From the IMG/VR virus record IMGVR_UViG_2671180724_000008: a DNA stretch of 64,000 bases, one strand, 5' to 3'. This DNA is from a virus (Duplodnaviria; Heunggongvirae; Uroviricota; Caudoviricetes). The position numbers and the translations under genes are program-made. The notes under the pieces are model-generated. The model was not told where the DNA came from, ran no database searches, and saw nothing but the letters and a program-made list of their open reading frames with translations. Of this stretch, positions 1 through 25,880 are shown piece after piece (within the stretch, counting starts at the first letter, position 1; each line of letters begins with the position of its first letter).

Positions 1-2
1 AC

Positions 3-311
3 CCGAACGCACACCTGCATATTCCATCATGGTACACCGGCGATAACGACATTCTCGACCAGAACTACCGAAACGAAGGATTGGTACGGCTTGCACCCGG
101 AACAGAGCCTCAACGTGGGGACATCTTCTTTATCCAATACGGGAAAATGCCTGACCACTGCGCGGTTTATATCGGTGATGGAATGATTCTTCATCACCAG
201 ATCGACCGCCTTAGTTGTCGTGCTTATTACGGCGGGATGTATCAGAAACATACGACGCATCACTTGCGTCACAAAGACTTGCTCAAGGGAGATGAGACGT
301 GTCTGAGTTAG
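3..311 (+). CDS. tail assembly protein K-like (NlpC/P60-type peptidase domain), 5' end lies outside window
   Basis: Frame is open from the window edge to the stop at 311. Cys/His motif HCAVYIGDGMILHH. Position immediately upstream of I-like and J-like genes. Confidence 0.55.
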   Translation, partial: PNAHLHIPSWYTGDNDILDQNYRNEGLVRLAPGTEPQRGDIFFIQYGKMPDHCAVYIGDGMILHHQIDRLSCRAYYGGMYQKHTTHHLRHKDLLKGDETCLS

Positions 312-889
312 TTCATGTGCAGCTTGGCGGCCCTATGGCCAAACATTTTGGCCGCCACTGGCATCTAAAGGTGCGCAATACAAAACAGGCTCTGGATTTA
401 ATTGAGGCCAACAAGCCTGGGTTTAAAGCATGGATGAAGCGCAATATCAAAACCTATGACAGATACCACATCCAGATCACCAATAAACAGGGCCACAAGT
501 GGTCTGTGGACGAGAGTGAATATCAGATGATGGGGCAGTCTGACAATATTGCAAAAATCCGCATTACCCCTGTTCCGCGAGGAAGTGGTGGATCTGCTTT
601 TGGATGGTTTCAGACGGTTGTTGGAGCAGTATTAATGGTTGCCTCGATATGGGTGCCCGCTCTTGCGCCTCTCGGTTTGTCACTGATGATGGGCGGTATA
701 GCGCAAATCATATCTCCGCAAGCCACTAACGAAAGTGTGAGGCAGGCGGATAACTCGAACTCTTATTACTTTGATGGACCTCAAAACACAACAAACCAGG
801 GGAACCCTGTACAGCTTATCTATGGCGAGGAAATTTTAGTTGGCTCACAGGTCGTGAGTTCTTCTATCACCATCGACCAGCTTATGTAA
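299..889 (+). CDS. tail assembly protein I-like
   Basis: 196-aa ORF overlapping the K-like stop and directly preceding the J-like gene. Hydrophobic C-terminal segment as in lambda gpI-type proteins. Confidence 0.5.
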   Translation: MSELVHVQLGGPMAKHFGRHWHLKVRNTKQALDLIEANKPGFKAWMKRNIKTYDRYHIQITNKQGHKWSVDESEYQMMGQSDNIAKIRITPVPRGSGGSAFGWFQTVVGAVLMVASIWVPALAPLGLSLMMGGIAQIISPQATNESVRQADNSNSYYFDGPQNTTNQGNPVQLIYGEEILVGSQVVSSSITIDQLM

Positions 890-900
890 TCAAGGATTTT

Positions 901-3900
901 TTGGACATGGAACAGTTCAAGAAGAAAAAATTACCGCTTCTTATTGCCGGTGCTGGTGGCAAGAAAAGTAAAAGCTCCAGCCGTACACCGGTTGAAGCTG
1001 ATGATACTGTCAATTCTCGTGCTATGGCAGCCATCCTCGACCTTCTTGGCGAGGGGGTTATCGGTGGCCTGGTAAATGGCGCAAAGTCGATCTTCATCGA
1101 CGATTTACCGATCTTGAATGAAGATGGCTCTTCCAACTTCAGCGGTATTACATGGGATTTTCGTGACGGCTCACAAGACCAGACGCCAATGGCTGGTTTT
1201 GATTTTGTTGAAACGCCTAAGTCCGTAAATATTCAGCTTAAAAAAACACACGACGTTACGGTTTCAATCGATAACGATGAAGCTGATCGCGTTCGTGTCA
1301 TCATGAAATTCCCCTCTTTACGTAGCGTTGATAAAAGCTCTGGCGATACAAATGGCACTACGGTGAAGTACAAATTCCAGATCGCCAACGGAGACGCAAC
1401 ATTTTCTGATGTAGTGGCAGAAGGTGAGAAAAGCGTTGATATCACGCTAACGGCAAAGAAAACCGGCGTGTATTACCGTAGCTATGAGCTGAAACTGCCT
1501 AAGCCTGGTCGTGCATACAAGGTTAGGGTAATTCGTCTTACAGATGATAACAGTAGCCAGTACCTCTACAACGACACATGGGTTGATTCCATAGGTGAGA
1601 TTGTAGATACACCCATGAACTACCCTAATTCTGCACTTGTTGGCTTAAAGGTCAATTCAGAGCAGTTTGGTAGCACAATGCCTTCCCGTTCGTATTTGGT
1701 GCGCGGTATCAAAATTCGAGTACCGTCAAACTACAACGAATACACCAATACTTATGTCGGCGTATGGGACGGTACTTTTAAGCTGTTGTCTTCTTCAAAC
1801 CCTGCGTGGATTCTCTACGATTTGCTTACCAATACTCGGTATGGTCTTGGGCAATTTGTGTCGGAATCCATGATTGACCTCGGCCAGCTCTACCAGATTG
1901 GTCGATATTGTGACGAAGAGGTCGATGATGGCTTTGGGGGTAAAGAGAAACGCTTTGCAATCAATACGCAGATCACTAGTCGACAAGACGCATACCGATT
2001 AATTCAGGATATTGCCGGTGCATTCCGCGGCATGGTGTTTTGGGCTGGTGGCATGGTTAACATCATGCAGGATAGCCCATCAGATCCGGTAATGATGTTT
2101 ACCAACTCCAACGTCAAAGATGGGCTGTTTACCTATAAAGGTTCTGCGCGTAAAGATCGCCCATCCGTTGCGCTCGTAACCTACAACAACAAGGAGGACG
2201 GTTATAAGCAAAACATCGAGTACGTTGAAGATCAGGACGCAATGCGCCGTTATGGTGAGCGTAAAACAGAAGTCGTAGCATTTGGATGTACAAGCCGAGG
2301 CCAGGCTCACCGAGTTGGTTTGTGGCTTTTGTATACCGCCAGAATGGAGTCGGATGTAATTACATTTACTGCCGGCTTAGACGCCTCATTTCTGATGCCC
2401 GGTGAAACCGTTCTGATTCAGAACAAATATCGTGCAGGTAAACGTAACTCCGGTCGAATTGTGGAGTTTACCAAAAACAGCATCACTCTCGATGCGCCTG
2501 TGTCGTTAGCTAAAAGCGGCAGCTTTATTCGGATATTGAATCAGGAAGGCAAAATCGTTGAACGCGATGTTCTTGAAACTGGCGAAAACATAACAAAGGT
2601 TACGTTTTCAAAAGCCCTGTCGTCAGCGGAAACGCCTGTTTTGAACGGTGTCTGGACAATTACAGAACCAGATCTCGAACCTATGCGCGTTCGCATCGTT
2701 AACATCGCGCAGGGGGAAACGCCGGGTAGCTTTGACATCACCGCTGTTGAGAACAATCCGTCTAAATATGAGGCAATCGACAATGGTGCAACGCTTATCC
2801 CGCAGAATACGACGGTATTGGACCCGACTTACTCCAAGCCATCTAATTTGCAAATCACTGAAGGGACTTATCTCTCAAGCCCGGGAAACCTGTCAGTAAA
2901 ACTGACTGCAACATGGGAAGGGAAATCTCCAGAGTATTGGATCAGTTGGCGACGTTCTGATGAAAACAATGTATCGAACTGGCAATCGGCGCGTGTAACC
3001 GAAGAGCAATACGAAATCGTTAATGTCGCGGAGAATGGACGCTACGACTTCCAACTGTATGCGGTTTCATTCAACGGTAAAAAAACAGAAATTATCAGTA
3101 CCGTTTATCAGGTGCTGGGCACAATGACACCGCCGGATGCACCAACGTCATTAACGGCCGTTGGAGACTATCGTAATGTGATACTAAATTGGGTTAATCC
3201 AGATTCGGTAGACCTTGATCACATTAATGTTTACGCATCCCAGACCAACAATCTGGATACGGCGAAACTGATCGCGGAGTCTGCAAGCACCACCTTTACA
3301 CATGCTGGTCTTGGGGATAGTGAAACGTGGTATTACTGGGTTCGAGCATCGAACAAGCGCGGCATGTTAAGTCCTCCGAACTCAAACTTGGGTACAGAGG
3401 CGACAACTCGCGATGTACTGTCGTTCCTGGAAGGTAAGATTACATCGTCTGAGCTTGGTCAGGCTCTGCTTGAGGACATCCACAGCAAAGCCTCTCAAGA
3501 AGCAGTTGACGAGTTAAATGAGCATATCAACCAGAGCGTCGAATCTTTGGAGGGGGCGGTAAACGACGTTAAGGAAGATATAGCTGAATTAGATAAGCAG
3601 TTCAGCGATAACCTCGCGGATTTTGAAATAAAATTCAACGAGCGTAGCGATGCTTTGGAGAACGCACAAACCGAGCTTAAAGGTGAGGTTTCGGCAACGA
3701 TCGACAAGGTCAATGAAGCGTTTGAAAAAATTGGTGCTACTGATGCTGCAATTGTTGAAATCGAAAACACCGTATCTGAACACGATAAAGCTCTCGCTAA
3801 TACAGTCGAGGCAATAAAGGCTGCAAGAGATGAAGCAGCAGCTCTTATTGCTAAGGAAAGCGAGGCTCGTGTTGAAGGCGATGCTGCAAACGCTAAACAA

Positions 3901-5631
3901 CTGGAAGTGTTGCAGTCAACGGTAGAGGAAAGCTCCGCTGCCGTTGAAGAAATGAAAAAGACGGTTGCAGAGGTCGATCGTGCCAGTGCAGAACTGACTA
4001 CGAACATTGAGGCGTTAGCCAAAACAAATATTGACCTGGCTCTTCGTCAAGATGAAGACCAGCGCAAGCAGATGGTCAATAACGCGAAGATCGCAACAAC
4101 ACAGAAAACCTTTGCTGATGATATGTCTGCAATGGCCACGAAGGTTGAGGAAATTCGCGTAGAAATTGGCGAAGACATTAAGGCCAGTATTCTGGAAGAG
4201 TCCACCGCTCGTGCCGATGGCGATGAAGCGTTGGCAAAGCGTGTCACTCAGCTGCAATCTAAGTTTGAAGGAGATATCAGCGCGGCGATTAGTACAGAGC
4301 AGGAGGCTCGTACATCTGCCGATGAAGCTCTGACGACACAGATCACTCAGCTTGAGTCGAAAGTAAGCAACGATATCGTCGCAGCTATTAAGGAAGAGCA
4401 AGAAGCCCGAGCAACGGAAGATTCGGCTCTGGCAAGCCAGATCACCCAACTTCAGGCAAAGGTTGATGATGATATTTCTGCTGCAATACGTAGTGAGCAG
4501 GAGGCTCGAGCAAGCGGGGACTCTGCATTAGCCAAACAAATAAACCAGCTTCAGTCAAAGGTTGACGGTGATATATCCGCTGCCATCACTCAGGAGCAGG
4601 AGGCCAGGGCAAGTGCTGACCAGGCGCTCTCACGAGAAATTAACAGCCTGCGAGCACAGACCGGAACTGATATTGCCGCAGCGGTTGCTGTAGAGACAAA
4701 GGCAAGGACTGATGCCGATAGTGCATTGTCCACTCAGATTACGTCTCTTACAGCAAAAGCTAATGATCTCGAGGCATCTCTTGCCAGAGAAACAACGGCT
4801 CGTGCAGATGGTGATACCGCTTTAACAAAAGAGGTTTCAAGTTTAAAAGCACAGACTGCGAAAGATATTAGTGCGGCCGTTGCAGTTGAAACGCAGGCTC
4901 GAACTGATGCTGACTCGGCGTTGTCATCTCAGATCACCAAGCTGACCTCTCAATACAAAGAGGATATTAAAGCGGCTGTAGCAACCGAAACGAAAACGCG
5001 TACAGAGCAAGATGCGGCACTGGCGACTCAAATCACAAACTTAGAGTCTCAAACAGCAGCCAACATTTCTGCGGCGGTCACAACTGAAACGACAGCGAGA
5101 ACGCAGGCAGATAATGCTCTAAGTGGGCGAATCGATACTCTGAAAGCAGAGGTGGATGGAAATACCGCGACAATTCAACAGCAGGCAACGGCCATTGCTG
5201 ATACCAACAAAAAAGTCTCAACCGCGTGGACGTTGAAAATGGAGACTTCAACGAGCGGAGGGCAGAAGTATGTTGCCGGTATTGCGCTTGGTATCGACAC
5301 CACCGGTCTTTCTCAGTTTTTGGTGCAGGCGGACAGATTTGGTTTGGTCAACTCTGTTAACGGGAAGATCACCACGCCATTTGTTATCGAAAACAGTATC
5401 GCCTATATGAATGGTGCGTATATCAAGGATGGCACAATCACCAATGCAAAAGTAGGCGATCTGCAATCTACCAATTTTGTTAGCGGTAGATCTGGATGGC
5501 GGTTCGGCAAAAATGGAACGCTTGAGATCAACGGTAATAGCGGAGGTAATGGGCGACTGGTCATAAATGGTCAGCGGATTGACGTTTATGACGATAACAA
5601 CGTCCTACGAGTAAGAATTGGCCTTCTGTAA
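901..5631 (+). CDS. host specificity / tail tip protein (lambda J-like) with C-terminal coiled-coil repeat extension
   Basis: 1576-aa ORF with RBS-like aaggat upstream. Contains the J-family motif NPAWILYDLLTNTRYGLGQF and fibronectin-III-like segments, followed by about 300 aa of periodic Ala/Glu/Gln-rich repeats. Confidence 0.8.
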   Translation: MDMEQFKKKKLPLLIAGAGGKKSKSSSRTPVEADDTVNSRAMAAILDLLGEGVIGGLVNGAKSIFIDDLPILNEDGSSNFSGITWDFRDGSQDQTPMAGFDFVETPKSVNIQLKKTHDVTVSIDNDEADRVRVIMKFPSLRSVDKSSGDTNGTTVKYKFQIANGDATFSDVVAEGEKSVDITLTAKKTGVYYRSYELKLPKPGRAYKVRVIRLTDDNSSQYLYNDTWVDSIGEIVDTPMNYPNSALVGLKVNSEQFGSTMPSRSYLVRGIKIRVPSNYNEYTNTYVGVWDGTFKLLSSSNPAWILYDLLTNTRYGLGQFVSESMIDLGQLYQIGRYCDEEVDDGFGGKEKRFAINTQITSRQDAYRLIQDIAGAFRGMVFWAGGMVNIMQDSPSDPVMMFTNSNVKDGLFTYKGSARKDRPSVALVTYNNKEDGYKQNIEYVEDQDAMRRYGERKTEVVAFGCTSRGQAHRVGLWLLYTARMESDVITFTAGLDASFLMPGETVLIQNKYRAGKRNSGRIVEFTKNSITLDAPVSLAKSGSFIRILNQEGKIVERDVLETGENITKVTFSKALSSAETPVLNGVWTITEPDLEPMRVRIVNIAQGETPGSFDITAVENNPSKYEAIDNGATLIPQNTTVLDPTYSKPSNLQITEGTYLSSPGNLSVKLTATWEGKSPEYWISWRRSDENNVSNWQSARVTEEQYEIVNVAENGRYDFQLYAVSFNGKKTEIISTVYQVLGTMTPPDAPTSLTAVGDYRNVILNWVNPDSVDLDHINVYASQTNNLDTAKLIAESASTTFTHAGLGDSETWYYWVRASNKRGMLSPPNSNLGTEATTRDVLSFLEGKITSSELGQALLEDIHSKASQEAVDELNEHINQSVESLEGAVNDVKEDIAELDKQFSDNLADFEIKFNERSDALENAQTELKGEVSATIDKVNEAFEKIGATDAAIVEIENTVSEHDKALANTVEAIKAARDEAAALIAKESEARVEGDAANAKQLEVLQSTVEESSAAVEEMKKTVAEVDRASAELTTNIEALAKTNIDLALRQDEDQRKQMVNNAKIATTQKTFADDMSAMATKVEEIRVEIGEDIKASILEESTARADGDEALAKRVTQLQSKFEGDISAAISTEQEARTSADEALTTQITQLESKVSNDIVAAIKEEQEARATEDSALASQITQLQAKVDDDISAAIRSEQEARASGDSALAKQINQLQSKVDGDISAAITQEQEARASADQALSREINSLRAQTGTDIAAAVAVETKARTDADSALSTQITSLTAKANDLEASLARETTARADGDTALTKEVSSLKAQTAKDISAAVAVETQARTDADSALSSQITKLTSQYKEDIKAAVATETKTRTEQDAALATQITNLESQTAANISAAVTTETTARTQADNALSGRIDTLKAEVDGNTATIQQQATAIADTNKKVSTAWTLKMETSTSGGQKYVAGIALGIDTTGLSQFLVQADRFGLVNSVNGKITTPFVIENSIAYMNGAYIKDGTITNAKVGDLQSTNFVSGRSGWRFGKNGTLEINGNSGGNGRLVINGQRIDVYDDNNVLRVRIGLL
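4200..5120 (+). repeat. imperfect tandem coding repeats (about 40-aa period, coiled-coil-like) inside the J-like gene
   Basis: Recurring peptide pattern EQEARASADSALxxQIxxLxxKVxxDISAAI repeated more than 8 times. The same repeats generate the spurious long minus-strand ORFs in this region. Confidence 0.7.
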
Positions 5632-5723
5632 TGTAGAAAAAAATATTTACATCGGTAAAAATAAGTATGTACTTACTTAATGGCGGGCAAGGATAGCCCG
5701 CCAAATCAAGGAGCATATTCAAC

Positions 5724-8700
5724 ATGTGGTACAGGGAAGGTACTATCACATTTACACAGGGTAGCAATACTCTGGTTGGGGTTGGGACAGCCTGGAACGT
5801 AACAGCTAATGGTGTGTTGCCGGGGATGATCGTCATTGGCCCCGACAATAAGCTGTATGAGATCAAGCGCGTAACAAGCGATACGAATATTGTTCTCTCA
5901 GAACCTTATACCGGCGAAACTCAGTCTGAAGTTCCGTGCCGAATCATTACGACCTATGAAGGCGACTTAACACAGTTTAGCGCGCGCTTTACTGCGCTAA
6001 TGTCGCGTATGTCGGCTGATTCCAAGTCCATGCGCAGTTGGTTGACTGCTCTTGATGAGGTGACAATCGAGCGTGAAGACGGTACAGAAGTTACCGTTAA
6101 GCCGCTGATGCAGATCGTCAACGAGCACAACGAAAACGTTGAGTGGTATAAAAATAACACCGACGCGATTGACGCTGCTGGCGACAAAGCTCGTGAGGCG
6201 GCGGCCAGTGCTGCCGCAGCAGCAGAAAGCGCCAATACCGCTGGAGAAAAAGCCTCTCAAGCGTCTCAAAGTGCATCCGCTGCGGAATCCTCACAAAGTG
6301 CTGCAAGTGCGAGTGCAACTGCTGCGAAAAAATCTGAAACGAACGCAGAATCAGCATATGTCGCGGCAGCAGAATCAGCATCTGTAGCGTCGACTAAAGC
6401 ATCGGAGGCGGCCACATCTGCGTCCAGTGCCTCTGCATCTAAGGATGCGGCTAAAGCATCAGAGGCTAACGCTTCATCGAGTGCAAACGCGGCGGCATCA
6501 TTTGCAACAGAAGCTGAAAATTCGTCTAAGGCAGCAAAAGCGTCAGAGACAAACGCAAAAGCATCTGAAACGGCAGCCGGGCAGAGTGCATCGTCTGCAA
6601 ACAGTTCGAAATCTGCGGCAGAAGCGTCAGCAAGCGCAGCCTCAGCAAGTGCGGATAGTGCTTCATCAAGTGCAACTGCGGCAGGAAAATCTGCGGAAAG
6701 CGCGTCGTCATCAGCGGCAACAGCTACCGCAAAAGCGACTGAGGCGACGAATCAGGCTACAGCCGCTAAAAATTCAGCATCAGCAGCGAAAACCTCTGAA
6801 ACAAATGCAAAGTCTTCAGAAGACAATGCCGCTTCCTCTAAGACTGCGGCTGCTGAATCTGCAAGTTCTGCGTCAGCATCAGCCACCTCGGCGTCTGCTT
6901 CAAAGGATGAGGCGACCAAGCAGGCATCAGCTGCGAAGGGTAGTGCTTCAACGGCATCCACGAAAGCAACAGAGGCGGCAGGCAGTGCGACGGCTGCATC
7001 TCAGAGCAAAACTGCTGCTGAATCCGCTGCGACTCGTGCAGAAGCTGCCGCTGATCGTGCTGAAGAGATTGCCGGTGCAGTTGCGATGGAAGACGCAAGC
7101 CTTACAACTAAAGGTGTTGTGAAACTTAGCAGTGCTGTCGATAGCACCAGCGAATCACTGGCTGCAACTCCAAAGGCAGTTAAAGCTGCGAATGACAATG
7201 CGAATAGCCGATTGGCGAAGAACCAGAATGGTGCTGATATACCAGGTAAGGATACCTTCACGAAAAATATTGGCGCTGGGCGAGCATTTGGAGGCTCTGT
7301 AAGTACAACAGCAGGAAACTGGACTACGGCACAGTTTGTCGAATGGTTGGACTCTCAAGGGGCGTTTAATCATCCGTACTGGATGTGTAAAGGCTCATGG
7401 TCGTATGGCAACAACAAAATCATTACTGATACTGGTTGTGGCAATATTCATCTTGCCGGGGCAGTAATTGAGGTAATGGGGATAAAGTCAGCAATGACGA
7501 TCCGCGTTACCACACCAACAACATCTAGCGGTGGTGGTACTGCTAACGCTCAATTTACTTATATTAACCACGGGACAGATTATTCTCCAGGCTGGCGACG
7601 AGACTACAATACAAAATACAAACCTACGCCATCGGATATAGGTGCATTATCAACATCAGGAGGGACGGTTTCAGGTCCGTTGTCTGTTACTGGTGGATTA
7701 ACTGGTTCATTGAATGGCAATGCGAGTACCGCCACGAAATTGCAGACTGCAAGAACTATCGGCGGCGTGGCCTTCGATGGATCTGCGAACATAAATTTGC
7801 CTGGTGTAAACACGGCAGGTAATCAGAGCACTACTGGTAATGCCGCAACCGCTACAAAACTTCAAACGGCAAGAACGATTGGTGGCGTTTCATTTAACGG
7901 AACTGCCAACATCGACTTGCCCGGAGTTAACAAAGCTGGCAACCAAAGCACCACAGGTAATGCTGCTACAGCTACTAAATTGCAGACAGCAAGAACCATC
8001 GGTGGTGTAAGCTTCGATGGCACTGCGAATATTAATTTGCCTGGTGTTAATGCTGCCGGTAATCAGAACACTACCGGTAACGCGGCCACAGCGACCAAGT
8101 TGCAAACTGCTAGAACTATTAACGGGGTGTCGTTTAACGGCTCTGCGAATATTTCAATACCAACAATTACGTCCAGAGGACGCGTTACTGCGCTCACCGG
8201 TACAACACAAGGTGCTGCGACTGGATTGCAGATGTACGAGGCATATAACAATGGCTACCCTTCGACTTACGGGAATGTGCTTCATCTTAAGGGCGCAACG
8301 GCCGTTGGTGAAGGTGAGTTGTTCATAGGTTGGAGCGGTACAAGTGGTGCTCATGCGCCTGTACATGTACGTTCGCGACGAGATACGGATACATCCAGTT
8401 GGTCTGAATGGGCGCAAGTTTATACGTCCAAAGACTCTATTCCAGGTGTCAATGCCACCGGTAATCAGAACACTACTGGCAACGCAGCCTCTGCAACGAA
8501 GTTGCAGACAGCCAGAACAATTGGAGGTGTGTCGTTTAATGGTACCGCCAATATTAACTTGCCGGGTGTTAATATAGCGGGTAATCAGAATACGACTGGT
8601 AACGCAGCTTCAGCCACGAAGTTACAAACGGCTCGTACCATCGGTGGTGTTAGTTTTAACGGTACAGCCAATATTAACTTACCTGGTGTGAATACGACCG

Positions 8701-9251
8701 GTAATCAGAACACTACTGGTAATGCTGCAACCGCCACAAAATTGCAGACAGCAAGGAAAATTGCTGGTGTTGCGTTTGATGGCTCTGCCGATATAACTTT
8801 GACTGCGGCTAACCTTAATGCTTATACGAAAACAGAGGTAACAAACCTTCTAAGTTCCTATGTGAAGAGCAGTGCTCTTCCAAGCATGACTGTGCGAACT
8901 TCCTCTGTATCAGGTGGGGATATGGGCATGAGTTTGTCTGCGTTCATTAGCCACCTTAAATCAAATGGAGCGTTTAGCAAAAGTTATTGGATTGGCTTTG
9001 GCGATGCTATGGGATTCAATGCTGGTAGTATCAACAATATAACGGGATTTGGTGCTGTAGAATTAGCAGAATCTATAATCGAAGTTTTTAATCTACCTAA
9101 CGGTGATTATACAATTCGTTTAACAACATCACATAAAGCTGACTACGGTGGAGTTACAAACGCAATCCTCGTTTATCACTACCGTAGTAATAGAAGTCCG
9201 TCAGGTCAATGGCTGAAATTTGCCGGTACTGTTGGGGCAACAAGCAACTGA
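5724..9251 (+). CDS. side tail fiber protein with phage-tail-fiber tandem repeats
   Basis: 1175-aa ORF with RBS aaggag upstream. Long Ala/Ser-rich low-complexity N-terminal third, then 9 copies of a 33-aa unit (TGNAATATKLQTARTIGGVSFNGTANINLPGVN). Confidence 0.7.
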   Translation: MWYREGTITFTQGSNTLVGVGTAWNVTANGVLPGMIVIGPDNKLYEIKRVTSDTNIVLSEPYTGETQSEVPCRIITTYEGDLTQFSARFTALMSRMSADSKSMRSWLTALDEVTIEREDGTEVTVKPLMQIVNEHNENVEWYKNNTDAIDAAGDKAREAAASAAAAAESANTAGEKASQASQSASAAESSQSAASASATAAKKSETNAESAYVAAAESASVASTKASEAATSASSASASKDAAKASEANASSSANAAASFATEAENSSKAAKASETNAKASETAAGQSASSANSSKSAAEASASAASASADSASSSATAAGKSAESASSSAATATAKATEATNQATAAKNSASAAKTSETNAKSSEDNAASSKTAAAESASSASASATSASASKDEATKQASAAKGSASTASTKATEAAGSATAASQSKTAAESAATRAEAAADRAEEIAGAVAMEDASLTTKGVVKLSSAVDSTSESLAATPKAVKAANDNANSRLAKNQNGADIPGKDTFTKNIGAGRAFGGSVSTTAGNWTTAQFVEWLDSQGAFNHPYWMCKGSWSYGNNKIITDTGCGNIHLAGAVIEVMGIKSAMTIRVTTPTTSSGGGTANAQFTYINHGTDYSPGWRRDYNTKYKPTPSDIGALSTSGGTVSGPLSVTGGLTGSLNGNASTATKLQTARTIGGVAFDGSANINLPGVNTAGNQSTTGNAATATKLQTARTIGGVSFNGTANIDLPGVNKAGNQSTTGNAATATKLQTARTIGGVSFDGTANINLPGVNAAGNQNTTGNAATATKLQTARTINGVSFNGSANISIPTITSRGRVTALTGTTQGAATGLQMYEAYNNGYPSTYGNVLHLKGATAVGEGELFIGWSGTSGAHAPVHVRSRRDTDTSSWSEWAQVYTSKDSIPGVNATGNQNTTGNAASATKLQTARTIGGVSFNGTANINLPGVNIAGNQNTTGNAASATKLQTARTIGGVSFNGTANINLPGVNTTGNQNTTGNAATATKLQTARKIAGVAFDGSADITLTAANLNAYTKTEVTNLLSSYVKSSALPSMTVRTSSVSGGDMGMSLSAFISHLKSNGAFSKSYWIGFGDAMGFNAGSINNITGFGAVELAESIIEVFNLPNGDYTIRLTTSHKADYGGVTNAILVYHYRSNRSPSGQWLKFAGTVGATSN
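7720..8165 (+). repeat. 99-bp (33-aa) tandem repeat block 1 inside tail fiber gene
   Basis: Five consecutive near-identical units encoding ATKLQTARTIGGV(S/A)F(N/D)G(S/T)ANI. Confidence 0.75.
8440..8800 (+). repeat. 99-bp (33-aa) tandem repeat block 2 inside tail fiber gene
   Basis: Three to four further units of the same repeat after an intervening unique domain. Confidence 0.75.
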
Positions 9252-9288
9252 TTTAGACATTATTTCTAATAAGGATAATTTATAAGAT

Positions 9289-9321
9289 GGTTGTGAGGTC
9301 GATAAATATGGCCTCACAACC
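9289..9321 (+). terminator. stem-loop downstream of tail fiber gene (putative terminator or RNA stabiliser)
   Basis: 10-bp perfect inverted repeat ggttgtgagg / cctcacaacc around a 13-nt loop. No clear T-tract follows, so efficiency is uncertain. Confidence 0.35.
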
Positions 9322-9341
9322 GCAGTTATAAGGATATATTT

Positions 9342-9596
9342 ATGAGCTATGGTGCACAGGTTTGGTCGCCATCAAGACAGGAGATGGTCGATGCGTTGGC
9401 CCCTGTTTATTACCTCGATTATTTTACTCCCTCTGGTTCTGGAAGTAGAACATATGATGTTGAGGCGGGATTGGGAATCGACTATTACATAATGGACGTA
9501 ACCAATGGGAAATACACAAGTCTTACGGTTTCTGGAAATACCATTTCATGGTCTGGAGCTAGTGGTAATTTAAACATATTGGTTTTTCAAAAATAA
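9342..9596 (+). CDS. hypothetical protein
   Basis: 84-aa ORF; stop overlaps the start of the next ORF (translational coupling). Lies in a lower-GC segment after the tail fiber. Confidence 0.4.
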   Translation: MSYGAQVWSPSRQEMVDALAPVYYLDYFTPSGSGSRTYDVEAGLGIDYYIMDVTNGKYTSLTVSGNTISWSGASGNLNILVFQK

Positions 9597-10204
9597 TGTA
9601 CGGAAGCAAGATATATCGATCTGACGGGAAGGTCTGGATGTCTCCTTCTTTGTCTCCTATCGTTTTTCAGAGAAAGCAGGTTGTTTCTTTATCCGGCGGG
9701 ACAGAGTTTAACACCCAAATATCTCCAGATCGTTCACCGATGATTTTTGTTGCCTATTCGAAAGCTGTTTCATTAATAGCCAACAGAATAGTGCGTAACA
9801 ACCAGGTGATTTACAGTTTCGGAGGTCAGGGTAGCGACTCTAGTGCCACGATATACGTATTTTCGAAAGGTATAGCCAAAAAAGAAACTTGGGGCATGAG
9901 TTTTTTCAATGCACAAGGGGAGGAAATCTATAATACGGCAAATATCCCACTTTCATTTACCTTTCTTAATAATACGGAGTGGAACAGCTCTGGAGGGCAT
10001 GTTTTTGATTACCCACCAGCGATAATCCCAACGTATGCGAATGTGTTCGCTGTTCCAGTACCGGGCGGAGCCATGACAATGGTTTATGGATATGCGGCAT
10101 ATGGAAATACTGTTAGCTCGATATTCGTAAACCAACTTAATGGCGGCCATAGTTTTAGCGTAAATGGCAGAGTACCGGTAATAAATAGAAATCTGTATAA
10201 CTGA
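9596..10204 (+). CDS. hypothetical protein (possible tail fiber accessory protein)
   Basis: 202-aa ORF translationally coupled to the preceding ORF. Position after the fiber gene; no recognisable motif. Confidence 0.4.
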   Translation: MYGSKIYRSDGKVWMSPSLSPIVFQRKQVVSLSGGTEFNTQISPDRSPMIFVAYSKAVSLIANRIVRNNQVIYSFGGQGSDSSATIYVFSKGIAKKETWGMSFFNAQGEEIYNTANIPLSFTFLNNTEWNSSGGHVFDYPPAIIPTYANVFAVPVPGGAMTMVYGYAAYGNTVSSIFVNQLNGGHSFSVNGRVPVINRNLYN

Positions 10205-10211
10205 TGAGTAA

Positions 10212-10445
10212 ATGATGAAAAGATTATTTCTAACAATAGCTGTTGTTCTCTCTCTTACTGGCTGCCAGAAATTGCCGACACCTATATGTTATGGTGAGGC
10301 TATCATTGGTGGACAGGAGACTGTCATACCTATATATGCTGTTAAAAAAGTGAACGACTATACCTTATACAAAGCGGGTAGCATCTATAACTGGCGATGG
10401 GTTGGAGTAGGTGCTTTCTCATCAGTCCGTTGCAATGCTGAATGA
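10212..10445 (+). CDS. small lipoprotein, candidate superinfection-exclusion (Cor/Llp-like) protein
   Basis: 77-aa ORF with lipoprotein signal MMKRLFLTIAVVLSLTGC (lipobox LTGC). Sits immediately after the receptor-binding genes. Confidence 0.45.
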   Translation: MMKRLFLTIAVVLSLTGCQKLPTPICYGEAIIGGQETVIPIYAVKKVNDYTLYKAGSIYNWRWVGVGAFSSVRCNAE

Positions 10446-10514
10446 TAGGTAAGTACACACCTACAACAAAAGGGTGAAATGTGATATAAATCCGCCATCC
10501 CGATTTGACTTTTC

Positions 10515-10850
10515 ATGGAGGAAAACATGTCGAACGAGATGGCGGGCGTTACAACAGAGCAAGTTGAGCGTATTGCCGCGATCGTTGCTCGGGAGGTTGT
10601 TGGCAAATTAGGTAAAGAGCTACGTGAAGAAATTGGCCAGGAGGTCAATGATCAGCTGAAAACCTACTTTGGTGATATGACCCCGGCGCAACATAGTATT
10701 CAACACTCCAATCTGGACAAACTCCTTAACCGGTTAGATTCCATCTCAAGTGGGTTCTTTGGCGGCATTGTTTCTAAAATAACGTCGTTCATTATTACCG
10801 CACTGCTTTTGGGGTTAGCCGCGTATGGCGTAAAAAATGGACTGCAATAA
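10515..10850 (+). CDS. membrane protein of lysis cassette (holin candidate)
   Basis: 111-aa ORF with a single C-terminal hydrophobic helix, directly upstream of the endolysin-like and spanin genes. Confidence 0.35.
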   Translation: MEENMSNEMAGVTTEQVERIAAIVAREVVGKLGKELREEIGQEVNDQLKTYFGDMTPAQHSIQHSNLDKLLNRLDSISSGFFGGIVSKITSFIITALLLGLAAYGVKNGLQ

Positions 10851-10863
10851 CAGGAGATCAAGG

Positions 10864-11556
10864 ATGAAGACTCCGAGAGGCATTCGTAATAATAACCCCG
10901 GTAATCTTGATAAAGGATCACCGTGGCAAGGTCTGGTTGTGAATCCAGACGAACCGCGCTTTTGCACGTTTAAAGACCCTGTTTGGGGGATTCGTGCGCT
11001 GGCGGTGACTCTAATTACCTACCACGACAAACGTCGCGCAAAAGACGGCTCAAGTATCGATACCATTCGTGAAGTTATTGAACGTTGGGCACCGCCGAAT
11101 GAAAACAACACTGACGCCTACATTAATGAGGTGTCTAAAGCCGTTGGTGTAACCGCAGACATGATCATCGATCTGCATGATTACGACATCCTTCGACCTT
11201 TGGTTGAGGCAATCATTCGCCACGAGAATGGTCGAGGTCCACTAAAAACGCTGAATACCTGGTATGCGGCAGAAGTTATTGAGGAAGGTCTGCGTCGAGC
11301 TGGCGTCGTTAAGCCGGTGAAAACCGTGAAGGCTGTTCCTGTAACTAAAGAAACAGCAGGCGCAACTGTCACAGCAGGTATTGGTCTGGCGCAGCTTGCC
11401 GATGTTATGCCGCAGGTTTCCGCTGCTATGGATAAGGCACAAGGTCATATCTCTAGCGGGGATACAGTACGCATCATCTTCGGTATTGCCACTATTGTTG
11501 TGGCAGGATTCATTGCCTGGTCGCAGGTAAGAAAACACCAGAAAGGGATGGTCTAA
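10864..11556 (+). CDS. putative endolysin / peptidoglycan hydrolase with C-terminal membrane anchor
   Basis: ATG at 10864 preceded by caggag. Conserved-looking N-terminal motif GIRNNNPGNL; C-terminal hydrophobic segment. Position between holin candidate and spanins. The ORF track offers an earlier start at 10837. Confidence 0.4.
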   Translation: MKTPRGIRNNNPGNLDKGSPWQGLVVNPDEPRFCTFKDPVWGIRALAVTLITYHDKRRAKDGSSIDTIREVIERWAPPNENNTDAYINEVSKAVGVTADMIIDLHDYDILRPLVEAIIRHENGRGPLKTLNTWYAAEVIEEGLRRAGVVKPVKTVKAVPVTKETAGATVTAGIGLAQLADVMPQVSAAMDKAQGHISSGDTVRIIFGIATIVVAGFIAWSQVRKHQKGMV

Positions 11557-11557
11557 T

Positions 11558-11809
11558 ATGCTAGGCAGCCTGATGACAAAGCTAAAAGTTGCTTTGATTA
11601 CGCTGGCTGCCGTTCTTTTCGTTCTGGTCGGCGCTTACACGATGGGCGGAAATGCGGCGCGACGAGCAATGGAAGAGAAGGCAAAACAGGAAGACAGGAA
11701 ACGACTTCAAAGCACATTGGACGTCAAAAATGAAACACTTGATGAGTTACGGAGCAAGGATGCTTCTACTGTTCATCATGAGTTGCACAATAAGTGGTTG
11801 CGTGATTAA
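11558..11809 (+). CDS. i-spanin (Rz-like)
   Basis: 83-aa protein with an N-terminal transmembrane helix followed by a charged helical periplasmic region; its start overlaps the endolysin stop. Confidence 0.55.
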   Translation: MLGSLMTKLKVALITLAAVLFVLVGAYTMGGNAARRAMEEKAKQEDRKRLQSTLDVKNETLDELRSKDASTVHHELHNKWLRD

Positions 11810-11960
11810 GCCTCAACCCGCTGGTGTGCTTTTCTGCGATGCGGCTACACCGCTATACATCAGCCGTGATGATCTCATGACCGAAGAGACTGAAAGAGAG
11901 GTGCTTTTTCACAATATGATAGGGGAGCGATTGTGTGGATGGGGCAGAAAAGTACCCTAA
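11730..11960 (+). CDS. o-spanin (Rz1-like lipoprotein), overlapped with i-spanin in another frame
   Basis: Internal start MKHLM in the 11652..11960 ORF. Lipoprotein signal with lipobox ISGC. Begins inside the i-spanin gene and extends beyond it. Confidence 0.5.
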   Translation: MKHLMSYGARMLLLFIMSCTISGCVIKPQPAGVLFCDAATPLYISRDDLMTEETEREVLFHNMIGERLCGWGRKVP

Positions 11961-12137
11961 CAGAAGAGGAGTTTTCTAACATAAAATTTGCATATTATTA
12001 GAGCACAAGGTAGATTTGGCACATGGATGTCAAGTAAATCATCCCTTGCATTAATGCTGCGACGCATACTCGTAGCCTCTAAACCCTGACAAGGGTCGCC
12101 GCTATGACATTAAGTTAATACCGGCTAAGGTGGACAC

Positions 12138-12521
12138 ATGCTGAACGAAAAACGTTCTATACAAACAATTCGCGATTGCACGAGTGTTATCGCAACTCAT
12201 GTGCTGAATAAGCGCAAACTTGAGGTGCGTAAACTTAACAACGATGCGACTGCGCCAAAAGACACTCGCTTCATCGTAACTTTCAAAGACGATGTTGAGA
12301 ATGCTGGTGCCAGTGTAAAACCGTTGGCTGAAGCGATTTTCCTGAACGATCGTGTTCGTTTCATTGTGAAGCCAGCAAAACAATACCCTGAATTAGCACG
12401 GTTTAGTGACCAATTCTCTGAAATTATTGAGAGTGCAATTCGCCGCTTTCTTAATACTCATGGTAGCATTGTCAGCAATACAACTGCTGATGGTACTGCT
12501 CTAAGATGGCACCTACACTAG
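12138..12521 (+). CDS. hypothetical protein
   Basis: 127-aa ORF with RBS-like aaggtgg upstream. Confidence 0.4.
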   Translation: MLNEKRSIQTIRDCTSVIATHVLNKRKLEVRKLNNDATAPKDTRFIVTFKDDVENAGASVKPLAEAIFLNDRVRFIVKPAKQYPELARFSDQFSEIIESAIRRFLNTHGSIVSNTTADGTALRWHLH

Positions 12522-13258
12522 AACGCACATACTCTAAAAATCTTTATGAGTTTCCTCACCGTGGGGAAACTCGCGTTTCACGTTTTGGCTACCTCATCAA
12601 CGAAGCATCGCTTTTCAAAATATCTGAAATAACCATTATCGAGCCTGATGATGATATCTGTCTGTATATCCTGATGGAGAAAGTTGGAGCACGAGATCAG
12701 GGTGAACTGATGGACTTCATTCTGGACAGAGGCGAAGATGGAATGTCTGATTCGGACATTATTCAAGCAATTCTGCGTTCCGACATGCTCGATCAGAGCA
12801 GAAACACGATAGCAGGCAGAATTGCATTGCGTGAATACACATTCATCGAGGATGGGGTAGAGATTGACTGCTATCAGATTGCAGGTGTTGAAACAGAAAG
12901 AGCAATAAGGCAAAGGGGACTGTGCAACCTCACGTATCGCTTCCTCCTTCATTGGTACGAACATCTTGTCTGTGATTACAATCAGACCATTCCTGGCGCA
13001 AAAATCTGGGCCGGTCCATTAATGCGAACAGGTGATGTAAGAATTTACAACGCAAAAACTGAGACGTTCGAGGATGTGTTAGGCGAATATGGGATGGGAA
13101 AAGAAACCGGCTTTTTGCCGTGGAACAGAGGATTGTTACTTGATCCAGAATTAAGCTCTTGGTTTCCAAATAAGGTGCAAGTTAACGTTGAGAAATTTAT
13201 CGTACTTATCATCTCCCGCAAAACAAGAACCCCAGTTGGTTTATATCTAAAAGATTAA
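12506..13258 (+). CDS. hypothetical protein
   Basis: 250-aa ORF overlapping the preceding stop; followed by a canonical terminator. Confidence 0.45.
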   Translation: MAPTLERTYSKNLYEFPHRGETRVSRFGYLINEASLFKISEITIIEPDDDICLYILMEKVGARDQGELMDFILDRGEDGMSDSDIIQAILRSDMLDQSRNTIAGRIALREYTFIEDGVEIDCYQIAGVETERAIRQRGLCNLTYRFLLHWYEHLVCDYNQTIPGAKIWAGPLMRTGDVRIYNAKTETFEDVLGEYGMGKETGFLPWNRGLLLDPELSSWFPNKVQVNVEKFIVLIISRKTRTPVGLYLKD

Positions 13259-13263
13259 CAATT

Positions 13264-13286
13264 AGGCGACTTCTGTCGCCTTTTTT
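13264..13286 (+). terminator. rho-independent terminator
   Basis: aggcgac-ttct-gtcgcc hairpin followed by tttttt. Confidence 0.7.
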
Positions 13287-13434
13287 GTTAACAGCCATTG
13301 ATTCTCGCCTAAAAATTCTAAGGCAGCACCTACCATTTAACCTTTACACAGCAGCCGTAGGCATTTAGGCTATATCACATATAAGAAAACAAGTTGTTTC
13401 AGACAATAATAATAGACGCAAAGGGAACTCTCCA

Positions 13435-14103
13435 ATGACCAAGATCTTTGTGGTTGGCGGCACAAAGGGCGGGCCTGGCAAATCCACTGTTGCCCAGCAA
13501 ATTGCCGTTTGCCTGAAAGTCAAAAAGAAGAAGAAGGTTTATATCACTGATATAGATATTCAGCGCACGACAACAAGCTGGTGTGAAGACCGTCGACAGA
13601 ACGAAGACCTTGAGCTGATTCCTTTTGCCTACGTTCAGGATGACATCATTAAGCACCTAAAATCGCTTCAGGGTAGAGCTGAGTTTGTAGTGGTAGATGC
13701 TGGTGGCTTTGACTCCGAAATTCAGCGACAAGCGATGCTGATGGCCGACGTTATCATTATCCCGCTGCGTCCTAAGCGTCGTGATTTGAAATCTCTGCGT
13801 GACATCGATCCTATTATCGACAATGTTCGTAATGTAAACGATAAAGTGAAGGTCCGCGCGGTCATGAACCAGTGCCCGGCTTTGCCATCACAAGTGTCTC
13901 GCATTCTGGCGGCTAAAGAGATTGTCGAGACGTTTGGCATCGAGTCTGCGCCAGTCAATCTATATAACCGCAACGTCTACGATGATGCGGAAGAGTCTGG
14001 TCGTTCTATCTTCGAAATGACCGGTAGCGAGCGCGACAAAAAGGCTGAAGCCGAGTTTGAAGAATTTGTAGATTATCTGTTGAGTCTGGAGGAAGAAGAA
14101 TAA
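13435..14103 (+). CDS. parA: ParA-family partition ATPase
   Basis: 222-aa protein with deviant Walker A GGTKGGPGKST near the N-terminus. Small size is typical of type Ib ParA. Confidence 0.8.
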   Translation: MTKIFVVGGTKGGPGKSTVAQQIAVCLKVKKKKKVYITDIDIQRTTTSWCEDRRQNEDLELIPFAYVQDDIIKHLKSLQGRAEFVVVDAGGFDSEIQRQAMLMADVIIIPLRPKRRDLKSLRDIDPIIDNVRNVNDKVKVRAVMNQCPALPSQVSRILAAKEIVETFGIESAPVNLYNRNVYDDAEESGRSIFEMTGSERDKKAEAEFEEFVDYLLSLEEEE

Positions 14104-23503: not shown

Positions 23504-24171
23504 ACATAATATTGAGAACATTGGCGTAACGGGGTCATATCCCAATCTATGAATAAATGTTACGTTGCCGCGTGACAACCAGTGTTCTCAACATTGTGGT
23601 GAATGCACAGGCTGATGTGCCGCAACTACAGTAGTGCGCGCTTTGCGGGGCTTGCTACAACCCTGTGTCGGAGATCAGCGCCGACCATCACAATTTGGCT
23701 CTCTTGCAACAGCATAACGCTGAAATATGTCCAACCTGGTGCGGCCTGTTCACCCGCCGTTAGCTCCACGAAACGGAGCGCACAACAGATAAGAGAACTT
23801 CCCATATGGGGCTTGGCTTAAATGCATCGAGTTCTCTTATCGCTGTGTCACAGACAAATTTCCGACAGCCCTGTTTATCATCGGACGCAACCTAAAAGGT
23901 CGAGGCAAAGCCAGGTAATAGCGGAGGGAGTGACACAGCACACAACAGGTAAGAGCATTTGTAGAGTTCGACTCTCTACCGTGGGCTTTTTCCCGCGATG
24001 CGAGCCATAAATGCTCTTTCCGTTGTGGTGGATTCGCAGACTGATGCGATAGCTTTCTTGGATGTTAGGGAAATGCGGCCGCAAATCTTCCCTTTCGCGA
24101 GCGGTGATCGTCCGTAGTCCTAATTGGCTGCACCGTATGCCGGAGATTCAGTACCGGCCACCACAACGGCC

Positions 24172-24258
24172 GGAGAGTAGGGAGCATGGTGCTCAAGCGG
24201 TCTTGAAAACCGTCCCATTGTGCAAACGATGATGGTTCGATTCCATTACTCTCCGCCA
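24172..24258 (+). tRNA. tRNA-Ser-like (anticodon TGA), type II, non-canonical D-arm
   Basis: Acceptor ggagagt / actctcc, anticodon stem-loop gcggt-ctTGAaa-accgt, long variable arm, T-loop ttcgatt, encoded CCA. The D-arm is irregular, so function is uncertain. Confidence 0.5.
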
Positions 24259-24260
24259 GA

Positions 24261-24338
24261 CACAGCGTTGAGCGGTTTGGCCTTTTAATCAACTCGATTA
24301 AGACTCCGCTAACATAAACCAGACCGCTCAACGCTGTG
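24261..24338. repeat. long imperfect inverted repeat immediately after the tRNA cluster
   Basis: 20-bp arms (19/20 match): cacagcgttgagcggtttgg and ccagaccgctcaacgctgtg, separated by a 42-nt loop. Confidence 0.6.
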
Positions 24339-24370
24339 ATAGACAATTACGGCAGACGTTCTTAACCATA

Positions 24371-24400
24371 GCTTGCTAACATCCTAGCAACACTTTTTTT
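24371..24400 (+). terminator. rho-independent terminator after tRNA region
   Basis: ttgcta-acatcc-tagcaa hairpin followed by cacttttttt. Confidence 0.5.
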
Positions 24401-24413
24401 CAGCGCAAAATTC

Positions 24414-24436
24414 AAAGGGGCTTCGGCCCCTTTTTT
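24414..24436. terminator. bidirectional rho-independent terminator
   Basis: aaaggggc-ttcg-gcccctttttt, with an A-run upstream and T-run downstream. Lies just past the 3' end of the minus-strand gene 24454..25788. Confidence 0.75.
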
Positions 24437-24453
24437 GAAAGCAATGGGCAAGT

Positions 24454-25788
24454 TCATGCCAAATTATCCAGATTTCTTTTCTTTTTTTCAATTATATTTC
24501 TCGCGCCAGAAAAAATTTTACTCAAAATAATTGATTTGCTTGCTCTATTATTAAGATGTAACAACGCGCTATAAAATACATAGTTATCTATTTTACTATT
24601 TAAAGTATTCCCAAGCTTCCCGTTATATGTGCTATTAATAGTATTAAAATATACATGTTCAGGACCTATATTACAAATACCCCTATCAACTCGCTTTAAA
24701 TAATGTTTAACTAAAGAAATAGCATCTTCCTTATCATTAATAACATAAAGTCCTGAGCGTTTACCTAGCTTGCTGTCCGAGAATAATTTATAACCAACAA
24801 GTTCATTTAACGTATTATCCACTTTTGTCAACTCTTTGTTGGCAATCTCCAAATAATACTCAATCTCTTTCTCCATATTACTTATTAAAGAGTTAAATTC
24901 TGCTCGTAACAAATCACCACCAGGTGATTTATAACTCCATAAAATTGAATTGGTAATACGTACTACGTCAGATACTTCTGGTTTCTCTGAATAGTTTTTG
25001 TATCTAGTGCAAATAATGCTGTGCTTTATATATTCTCTAACTAATGATCGATAATCCCTTTCGAAAAGGTTTTTGACATCTAGTCTTCCATTGCTTGTTG
25101 TTATTAAGGTGGTGTTTAAAACTGGGTCGCCTTCAAAAAAATTATATTTATTTAGTAATCGTTTTAGCTTGTGTGAATTATGTGATGTTTCGCCATAATA
25201 ATTTATCCCAAAAATAGCAATTATTAGCATAACATCAGGAGTGATGAAATGTCGTAATTGCTCGGCATAAACTTTTTTATCTTCGATTTTCGAAGATGGA
25301 GAGTAAAAACCTTTGTCTATATATTCTAATATTGAAACAATATTACTAACATAACGTATAAAAACTTGATTCATTACAACGGAATCATAAACCTGATGCA
25401 AATAATCTACTCTCAAGTTGTTTTTTATTTTTTCCCCTGTACTAGATGATAACTCTTCTTTTACCTGCCCAAGTAGCTTTTCGTGGTGCTCCAGCAATGT
25501 TTTAAACCATTGTTCAAATGATGATTTTCTTGCCTCAGTTAATGAATCTGATGTTATCTGGACAGCTTTCATAGCTGCTTTCGCACTTTTCTTTGCTTCA
25601 TAAGCGTTCCATGCTGAAGCACAAAAAGCTGCCGCCGTGATGCAACTGGTAAAAATAGAAATCCTATCTGCAACATTCAAGCTCCAGAACCAATCAGACG
25701 ATGAAATCAAAACCACAGATATTACGGGAACAATGAAAATCAAAACAGGCATGTATGTACTCGCTCTAATAGTTATTAGTCGAGGCAA
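24454..25788 (-). CDS. low-GC membrane protein of unknown function (candidate accessory / defence or exclusion gene)
   Basis: 444-aa minus-strand ORF in a markedly AT-rich segment. Two predicted N-terminal TM helices, then a largely helical soluble region with no nucleotide-binding or nuclease motif recognisable by eye. Own terminator at 24414..24436. Confidence 0.5.
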   Translation of the reverse strand: MPRLITIRASTYMPVLIFIVPVISVVLISSSDWFWSLNVADRISIFTSCITAAAFCASAWNAYEAKKSAKAAMKAVQITSDSLTEARKSSFEQWFKTLLEHHEKLLGQVKEELSSSTGEKIKNNLRVDYLHQVYDSVVMNQVFIRYVSNIVSILEYIDKGFYSPSSKIEDKKVYAEQLRHFITPDVMLIIAIFGINYYGETSHNSHKLKRLLNKYNFFEGDPVLNTTLITTSNGRLDVKNLFERDYRSLVREYIKHSIICTRYKNYSEKPEVSDVVRITNSILWSYKSPGGDLLRAEFNSLISNMEKEIEYYLEIANKELTKVDNTLNELVGYKLFSDSKLGKRSGLYVINDKEDAISLVKHYLKRVDRGICNIGPEHVYFNTINSTYNGKLGNTLNSKIDNYVFYSALLHLNNRASKSIILSKIFSGARNIIEKKKRNLDNLA

Positions 25789-25848
25789 ATATTATATAAA
25801 TCTCGTTATGATTTACAGACATGTATACGTATTGCTAATTATCACCAA

Positions 25849-25880
25849 CAAATGATAGGTGTGTACATATCTATCATTTG
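25849..25880. promoter_or_regulatory. palindromic operator-like site in a divergent intergenic region
   Basis: Perfect 10-bp inverted repeat caaatgatag ... ctatcatttg with a 12-nt spacer, between the minus-strand membrane-protein gene and the glutaredoxin gene. Confidence 0.45.

Follow-up and report, generated by a model that had tools for sequence, protein, structure and literature searches.

How noncontractile tails are powered to open and to penetrate the envelope is a long-standing question, and the sole experimental answer of the fold-switch type so far comes from one tailocin. The F7 pyocin was solved in two states, in which a 163-aa coiled coil converts to a β-prism on receptor binding (He et al. 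2026, bioRxiv, PMC12874032). In the prism, each subunit is one antiparallel sheet, and its formation opens the tip and expels the tape measure protein. The corners of the prism are packed with small residues; when these are replaced by Gln, particles still assemble but no longer kill. The F7 strands follow the pattern SxSxxMxxLxS, often with an Asp/Glu at M that is paired with an Arg four residues away. AlphaFold-multimer predicts the prism when the alignment is deep and the coil when it is shallow, and 21 of 24 phage homologues were predicted to switch; the word "repeat" never occurs in the text of that paper (PMC12874032). Here, we describe a J-like gene (901..5631, + strand) in the virus record IMGVR_UViG_2671180724_000008 (Caudoviricetes), of which a stretch of 64,000 nucleotides, hereafter the window, was analyzed. 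By sequence identity, the window belongs to an SSU5-like phage-plasmid of Escherichia coli (pLF82/Cyrano, pECOH89 type), a siphovirus that persists as a plasmid. The J-like protein (J below) carries ten tandem copies of a 33-aa unit marked by the F7 strand pattern, and on balance we lean toward a reading in which its shaft would be a trimeric coiled coil in a metastable state and, seeded from the tip domain, would collapse to a β-prism when the tip engages a receptor.

Four other described fibers bear on the comparison. The F2 pyocin shaft has been solved, and side fibers dock on an acidic, Gly-containing kink in it (Gu et al. 2026, PMC13455828; PDB 25vf). T1 gp33 (PDB 9L9P) is a 1172-aa J-like protein of which the C-terminal 350 aa are unresolved and known only from an AlphaFold3 model (PMC11945409). 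In Pseudomonas phage DEV, the separate receptor-binding proteins gp54/gp55 attach to the short fiber gp56 (PDB 9ZE4; PMC12892993). Lambda gpJ (PDB 8IYK, 8XCJ) is the reference for the J-type hub and for the straight-fiber domain.

Layout and repeat anatomy of the J-like fiber

The open reading frame (ORF) at 901..5631 encodes 1576 aa when counted from TTG 901 and lies directly after an I-like tail assembly gene (299..889, +; phrog_32, E 6e-64), the gene position expected of a gpJ-type protein. The gene order after I is the same as in lambda, and the order tape measure protein (TMP)-M-L-K-I-J is complete in Escherichia phage Cyrano (94% identical) and in PhiR41_1. The hub and FN3 part (aa 1-864; 901..3492) contains FNIII-A_GpJ (PF24801, aa 103-237, E 1e-29), Phage-tail_3 (PF13550, aa 359-522, E 8e-34), and fn3 (PF00041, aa 746-825). 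It aligns over aa 22-862 with gpJ 3-837 (8iyk_J, E 7e-128) and also with 25vf_A and 9l9p_S. At the other end, the C-terminal β domain (aa 1429-1576; 5185..5631) is covered by Phage_Tail_Tip (PF09327, aa 1424-1558, E 1e-41), and aa 1420-1548 align with the straight-fiber domain of gpJ (840-971, 8xcj_Z). Together with PHROG matches, the hub domains, the gene position, and the straight-fiber domain mark J as a lambda gpJ-type tip attachment or central fiber protein, as a preliminary description of this locus had read it. The score with the NCBIfam model lambda_TipJ is 526 bits against a cutoff of 1950, below what a lambda J equivalog would reach.

The two proteins differ in two places. The helical shaft of J is lacking in lambda, in which residues 837 and 840 flank the site of this ~560-aa insertion, and the LamB-binding C-terminal domain of lambda (~990-1132) is absent here. 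The gpJ alignment stops at residue 971, where J ends; a search of the C-terminal 150 aa for a receptor-binding fold returned the gpJ 840-971-type straight-fiber domain and not a lambda-type receptor-binding domain. J terminates in LRVRIGLL, as do T1 gp33 and DEV gp56, and by this ending it would group with these two and with the F-pyocin fibers, whose separate receptor-binding proteins are known or proposed.

The insertion has two parts, and aa 860-1420 gave no curated family match in Pfam or NCBIfam. The first part (aa 865-1099; 3493..4197) comprises 235 aa of nonperiodic, helix-type sequence without Pro, with 23% D+E and a heptad-like hydrophobic period of 3.56. The second is an array of 329 aa (aa 1100-1428; 4198..5184) built of ten units that start at aa 1100, 1133, 1166, 1199, 1232, 1265 (the only one of 32 aa), 1297, 1330, 1363, and 1396. 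Residue autocorrelation in the array peaks at lag 33 with 0.476, against an all-lag maximum of 0.192 in 1000 shuffles. The unit consensus is E..AR..AD.AL..QI..L.A....DI.AA..., with E1, R5, D9, A11, L12, and L19 invariant in all ten units and positions 4, 16, 26, 27, 29, and 30 nearly so. Ala makes up 20.1% of the repeats compared with 6.1% of the N-terminal 864 aa, and over the 564 aa from 865 to 1428 there is no Pro and Gly is rare. Gly stands at position 8 in units 1, 4, and 7, and D/E/G occupy positions 24-26 in most units; a three-unit supraperiod suggested by the former was rejected, as the autocorrelation at lag 99 is weaker than that at lag 33 or 66. The ORF and the roughly 300 aa of Ala-rich repeats noted in the preliminary description are therefore real, and the consensus written there agrees with the ten-unit alignment, whereas the period of about 40 aa given there is actually 33 aa (99 nt). 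The figure of 40 may come from the 120-nt (40-aa) arrays in the side fiber gene downstream.

At the DNA level the units are hard to see. Pairwise identity of the copies is 39-69% (mean 50%), the longest in-register exact run between units is 14 nt, and Tandem Repeats Finder, run on nt 1-10000, reported no DNA array in the J gene, so that the repeat is detectable only in the protein or with low-identity DNA seeds.

The hydrophobicity spectrum of aa 1100-1428 has two dominant harmonics, one at 2.06 (β alternation) and one at 3.65 (33/9, a hendecad helix), both above all 200 shuffles. Read as a helix, the unit would consist of three hendecads in nine turns, with a core of positions 8-12-16, 19-23-27, and 30-1-5 in perfect 4-4-3 spacing and a buried E1-R5 pair. 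Read as β structure, the same unit would be one hairpin, with 11 (strand) + 4 (turn) + 11 (strand) + 7 (turn) = 33 residues. Strand 1 would run A29-x-I31-x-x-E1-x-x-A4-x-A6 into a four-residue turn, and strand 2 A11-x-A13-x-x-I16-x-x-L19-x-S/A21 into a seven-residue turn rich in G, D, and N.

Strand motif and structure predictions

The SxSxxMxxLxS pattern occurs twice per unit. The forward motif lies at positions 11-21 of all ten units (A-x-A/S/T-x-x-I/V-x-x-L-x-S/A), and the reversed one runs, in every unit, from position 29 to position 6 of the next (A-x-I/V-x-x-E-x-x-A-x-A/T). In aa 1100-1428 we counted 26 matches where 5.5 were expected, a number reached by none of 1000 shuffles. The M positions E1 and D9 are acidic and have R5 at +4 and -4, respectively, in ten of ten units. 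Degenerate copies of the alternating motif also precede the repeats, at aa 949, 964, 981, 996, and 1013 (spanning aa 949-1023). The pattern holds across the family: in 480 distinct 32/33-aa units taken from relatives, S positions that lie beyond the search anchor hold a small residue (A/S/T/V/G) in 92-100% of units, as against 7-87% at control positions, while position 16 is 95-99% and position 31 is 99-100% LIVM and E1 is 100% conserved.

Homology points the same way as the motif. The F2 pyocin fiber (25vf_A, residues 882-1193) aligns with J aa 1241-1548 at E 1e-24, a match that covers the last units, the solved trimeric α-helical shaft, and the tip domain. F-type pyocin fibers share with J the J-like hub and FN3, an α-helical shaft that is trimeric in the pyocins, a PF09327-type tip domain that ends the protein, the strand motif with its acidic M/Arg pairs, and the AlphaFold coil and β predictions. 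J is set apart by a shaft 2 to 3.5 times as long (329 aa in the strict repeats and ~560 aa in total versus 163 aa) that is visibly made of ten tandem 33-aa units and belongs to a DNA-containing phage-plasmid rather than a tailocin. F-pyocin homology (through F2), the alternating motif, and the acidic M/Arg pair, three of the features by which a candidate fold-switching shaft would be recognized, are present here.

AlphaFold2 (AF2) monomer runs gave two folds. With a 26-sequence alignment, aa 1233-1408 form one uninterrupted helix, with a predicted local distance difference test (pLDDT) score of ~80 distally, 46-75 over aa 1327-1408, and about 50 beside the β domain. With a 54-sequence alignment, aa 1327-1576 are all β (mean pLDDT 90.9, predicted template modeling score 0.70), and each of units 8-10 becomes two long antiparallel strands, in a fold that passes without a break into the tip domain. 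The strand positions coincide with those of the forward and reversed motifs. Both models are β from aa 1411 on (the "seed" strands), as a nonswitching tip domain would be, and Foldseek matched the tip domain to the open state of lambda gpJ (8xcj/8xci) and to the SU10 tip fiber. As far as monomer runs on constructs of unequal length can, these outputs appear to reproduce the published coil/prism behavior. Coiled-coil propensity was read from the monomer helix and from the hydrophobic periods (3.65 in the repeats, 3.56 upstream).

The all-β model invites the view that the repeats are never helical in the virion and form a β-prism or β-sandwich stalk continuous with the PF09327 domain. It is the model of higher confidence, it runs on into the tip domain, and the helix of the other model falls to pLDDT ~50 beside that domain. 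We nevertheless regard a constitutive β fiber as improbable: in the assembled pyocins the homologous F2/F7 segments form coiled coils, the perfect 4-4-3 hydrophobic spacing and the conserved i/i+4 E-R pair are helical features, and 564 aa with no Pro and rare Gly are at odds with it.

The opposite view is close to that of the preliminary description, in which the repeats were a coiled-coil shaft that would extend the central fiber. The helical part of that claim is borne out by the AF2 helix over aa 1233-1408, the 3.65 period, and the homology to the solved trimeric shaft of the F2 pyocin; a static extension is probably not the whole story, given the fold-switch signature and the higher-confidence AF2 β-hairpins. 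Held strictly, it would mean that a permanent trimeric coiled coil lengthens the fiber through O-antigen or capsule to the receptor, that copy number tunes reach, and that no fold change takes place. The single long AF2 helix, the hendecad/heptad periodicity, and the F2 shaft solved as a coiled coil agree with such a spacer, as do the unit periods of relatives (32, 33, 36, and 39), each of which, by our arithmetic, can be made up of 7s and 11s, a requirement for an uninterrupted coiled coil. It leaves the strong period-2 signal and the β-hairpins at pLDDT 91 unexplained, and it accounts least well for the restriction to small residues (92-100% in the 480 units) at positions 4, 6, 11, 13, 21, and 29, which would be exposed in the coil. 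We consider it rather unlikely, though better placed than a constitutive β fiber.

Copy number in relatives and the proposed mechanism

When aa 1232-1576 were compared with 1.84 billion cluster representatives, 3038 proteins matched at E<=1e-3 and 1289 did so at E<=1e-10; many have 1500-4200 aa. Within the best 143 of these matches, a single protein can hold as many as 24 copies of the unit anchor, at spacings of 32 (the commonest), 33, 36, and 39. T1 gp33 (E 2e-29) shares the 33-aa unit (ALSREIDQLKAQIGDDIQASLTDIREVIATETE) and the C-terminal ending with J, but it has only 2-3 units, and these lack the R5/D9 pair. In DEV gp56, similar coiled-coil units are followed by the same tip domain; it differs in being a podovirus protein of 429 aa with about three units and no J-type hub. 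The architecture is also found in "J-like gp24" (23gd). Judged by these matches, the repeat shaft is a common module, and that of J is not an oddity but a long, repeat-built, otherwise ordinary member of a recently characterized and very widespread class, which only lambda sensu stricto lacks. The preliminary description, in which the shaft was not a standard part of lambda J-like proteins, was right for lambda gpJ itself but not for the 3038 cluster representatives, which include T1 gp33 and the F-pyocin fibers.

Closer relatives differ in copy number. E. coli relatives with a 1229-aa J lack exactly aa 868-917 (50 aa) and aa 1114-1409 (nine units), which leaves one unit, and their tip domain (aa 1437-1576) is ~97% identical to that of J; pSTEC388_1 is the only 1229-aa J record in PLSDB. 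Four to six units were found in Salmonella, Cronobacter, Y. pestis pMT1-type, and pHCM2-type proteins, nine in PhiR41_1, and ten in two other lineages. An E. coli variant set that is 99.65% identical to J is without exactly aa 1187-1219, a single unit, the loss lying between the two copies that are most alike. In PLSDB, on the other hand, the length of the J gene is identical in all 158 complete plasmids that match over its full length. Because the DNA identity of ~50% and the constant length in 158 plasmids stand against the one-unit variant and the range of copy numbers, the array can be called stable over short time scales and changes by whole units over longer ones. To call the region recombination-prone, as had been done, was an overstatement, although the one-unit loss and the 1-10 copies in relatives give the term some ground. 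High variability of the repeats among relatives without any effect on host range had been named as grounds for doubting the shaft; of this, the variability was found (1, 4-6, 9, or 10 units).

These numbers also suit a static spacer, for which a change from 1 to 10 copies next to a 97% identical tip domain would be a change of reach. Under the fold-switch reading, which we prefer, we infer a trimer, a switch, its trigger, and a role for copy number as follows. In the virion, the shaft would be held as a metastable coiled coil of three strands. Once the tip engages its receptor, the β structure of the tip domain could propagate upward, and each subunit would become one β-meander sheet of a triangular prism, taking up ~1 nm per unit instead of ~5 nm. 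The collapsing shaft would pull the tail mouth to the envelope, open the tip, and release the tape measure protein, with copy number setting reach and stroke. From standard geometry (0.148 nm per residue in a coiled coil, 0.48 nm per strand in a sheet), ten units would measure ~49 nm as a coil and ~10 nm as a prism, and the whole helical region ~83 nm and ~16 nm, respectively. By homology with the F7 pyocin, the F2 match, the motif here and throughout the family, the dual periodicity, the dual AF2 folds, and the signs of selection all argue for such a switch. A membrane-inserting β-barrel was rejected for the β form; the apolar face is Ala-rich, and there are only 2 F/W/Y in 329 aa.

Several observations weigh against the switch. 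The 1229-aa relatives function with one unit, which makes the nine extra units dispensable for basic function. The F7 switch region is 163 aa long versus 329-560 aa for the shaft here, which puts full conversion of the longer shaft in question. The tip of this phage is known here from sequence and predictions. Cyrano tails measure 259 +/- 12 nm versus 229 nm expected from the tape measure protein, and an extra 80-nm fiber is not obvious. Negative stain, however, often fails to show thin fibers, and the electron microscopy of Cyrano is limited to tail length and does not describe the tip. The AF2 runs modeled monomers, and their constructs differ in length and alignment depth, so that the helix/β difference is not a clean depth effect, and alternative folds from AF2 are not evidence of a physical switch. 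Finally, the F7 switch is described in one preprint and for a tailocin, and according to the same authors lambda and T5 do not switch in the F7 manner (PMC12874032).

A further explanation, not exclusive of the others, concerns the side tail fiber gene that directly follows J (5724..9251, +; 1175 aa), a candidate shaft partner that matches PHROG tail-fiber families and the Mu/P1 S-like segment 8ju3_A (E 1e-82). The main role of the units may be to provide repeated acidic, Gly-containing docking sites (KV-D/E-G/D-D-I; A-D/S-G-D) for this side fiber. In the pyocins, an acidic DDxDDG kink in the coiled coil is where the F2/F7 side fibers attach, through an OB domain and a basic stem, with three side-fiber trimers in F-type pyocins, and this kink aligns with an "AR..D.AL" unit of J; the Gly at position 8 in units 1, 4, and 7 and the D/E/G at 24-26 in most units would be its counterparts. 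Unlike in the pyocins, no PyoF11/F12-like small genes follow J; the side fiber is unrelated in sequence and has no detectable similarity to PyoF13, and ten docking sites for one fiber type are without precedent. A co-variation of J and side-fiber lengths was also looked for and dismissed, as 1576/1175, 1575/1341, 1535/597+155, and 1229/625 aa show no pattern in these four elements. We think a scaffold of this kind quite unlikely.

More tentatively than the switch itself, we propose a generalization that we hold to be possible. The fold-switching segment of siphovirus central fibers may be a tandem array of an autonomous 32/33-residue α/β "chameleon" unit (three hendecads or one hairpin), whose copy number (1, 4-6, 9, and 10 in this lineage; up to ~24 elsewhere) would determine the stroke (~4 nm of contraction per unit, ~40 nm here) and how much energy is stored for tail firing. 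What our analysis adds to the published work is the unit anatomy (33 aa = three hendecads = one hairpin) and a natural copy-number series in a tractable phage-plasmid. This E. coli lineage, which is widespread, offers the F7-type module in an iterated, countable form and in an infectious, inducible phage, which makes the spring hypothesis testable. If the hypothesis is true, nature would have supplied a dose series for tail-firing energy in the near-isogenic alleles with 1, 9, and 10 copies, whose tip domain is the same. The unit boundaries and small-residue positions are rational sites for engineering fiber length or for locking the tail.

Gene start, host element and neighboring genes

ATG 907 is a more probable start of J than TTG 901. 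Upstream of the gene lie TAA 887-889, AGGA 893-896, TTG 901, and ATG 907, and AGGA sits 10 nt before ATG 907, a better spacing than for TTG 901. We favor ATG 907 because of this spacing and because the Cyrano annotation, like that of PhiR41_1, starts J at the equivalent position.

Over its full length, the J gene is 94-99% identical at the nucleotide level to those of Cyrano (pLF82, strain LF82), phage CMS-2020a, pECOH89, and the 158 complete PLSDB plasmids of ~110 kb. Some of these 158 plasmids bear resistance genes, and LF82 is a Crohn's-associated strain. The rest of the window encodes ParA, a DnaB-like helicase, CobT, a Pol III α subunit, an SbcC-like protein, and ribonucleotide reductase, consistent with an SSU5-like phage-plasmid. 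An alignment with Cyrano 9007-13734 shows the gene to be mosaic, with ~91% identity over the 5' 2580 nt (225 substitutions) and ~98% over the 3' 2150 nt (41 substitutions). PhiR41_1 and Klebsiella phage-plasmids match only J nt 1-2650 at the megablast level, and together these patterns place a recombination boundary near the FN3/shaft junction. In addition, about 20 database proteins from draft assemblies (97-99% identical) end at aa 960-1052 (window 3780-4056), so that contigs often break within the nonperiodic helical part, just upstream of the repeats. Coresident J alleles with a common 5' half are one possible cause.

Three antisense ORFs overlap the shaft region (3495-4022, 3589-3900, and 4015-4449; together 3495..4449, - strand) and were judged to be noncoding by-products of Ala/Glu/Asp-rich sense codons. 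The preliminary description had already taken the antisense ORFs for spurious, with which the substitution pattern agrees, but had traced them to the DNA repeats, whereas they lie mostly within the nonperiodic helical part, outside the strict repeats. Substitutions relative to Cyrano fall mostly on the third position of sense codons (32 of 41 in the 3' half), which is consistent with selection on the sense frame only. The antisense ORFs were rejected as genes on this ground, even though both stay open in Cyrano.

The side fiber gene has repeats of its own, in two arrays of 120-nt (40-aa) units (7737-8116 and 8445-8771, 71-75% matches) with the motif NQ.TTGNAA.ATKLQTARTIGGV.F.G.ANI.LPGVN. Its aa ~150-440 are a long Ala/Ser-rich low-complexity stretch. 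Between this gene and the lysis genes lies a moron cluster (9342-10445, +) that encodes an 84-aa "outer membrane protein" (phrog_557), a 202-aa membrane-associated protein (phrog_425), and the 77-aa Cor. It appears to be absent from Cyrano, because the Cyrano annotation runs straight from the tail fiber to the holin. The cor-like superinfection-exclusion gene occupies 10212-10445 (+; 77 aa, phrog_1119, E 2e-30), and, going by Cor of T1, phi80, and N15, it hints at FhuA as a candidate receptor. Farther downstream, window positions 24001-26000 form a low-G+C island (36% versus ~46%). The ORF at 24454-25788 (-; 444 aa, phrog_18168) in this island has a weak match to a putative AbiC abortive-infection domain (PF16872, E 3e-4) and is probably an acquired accessory or defense gene.

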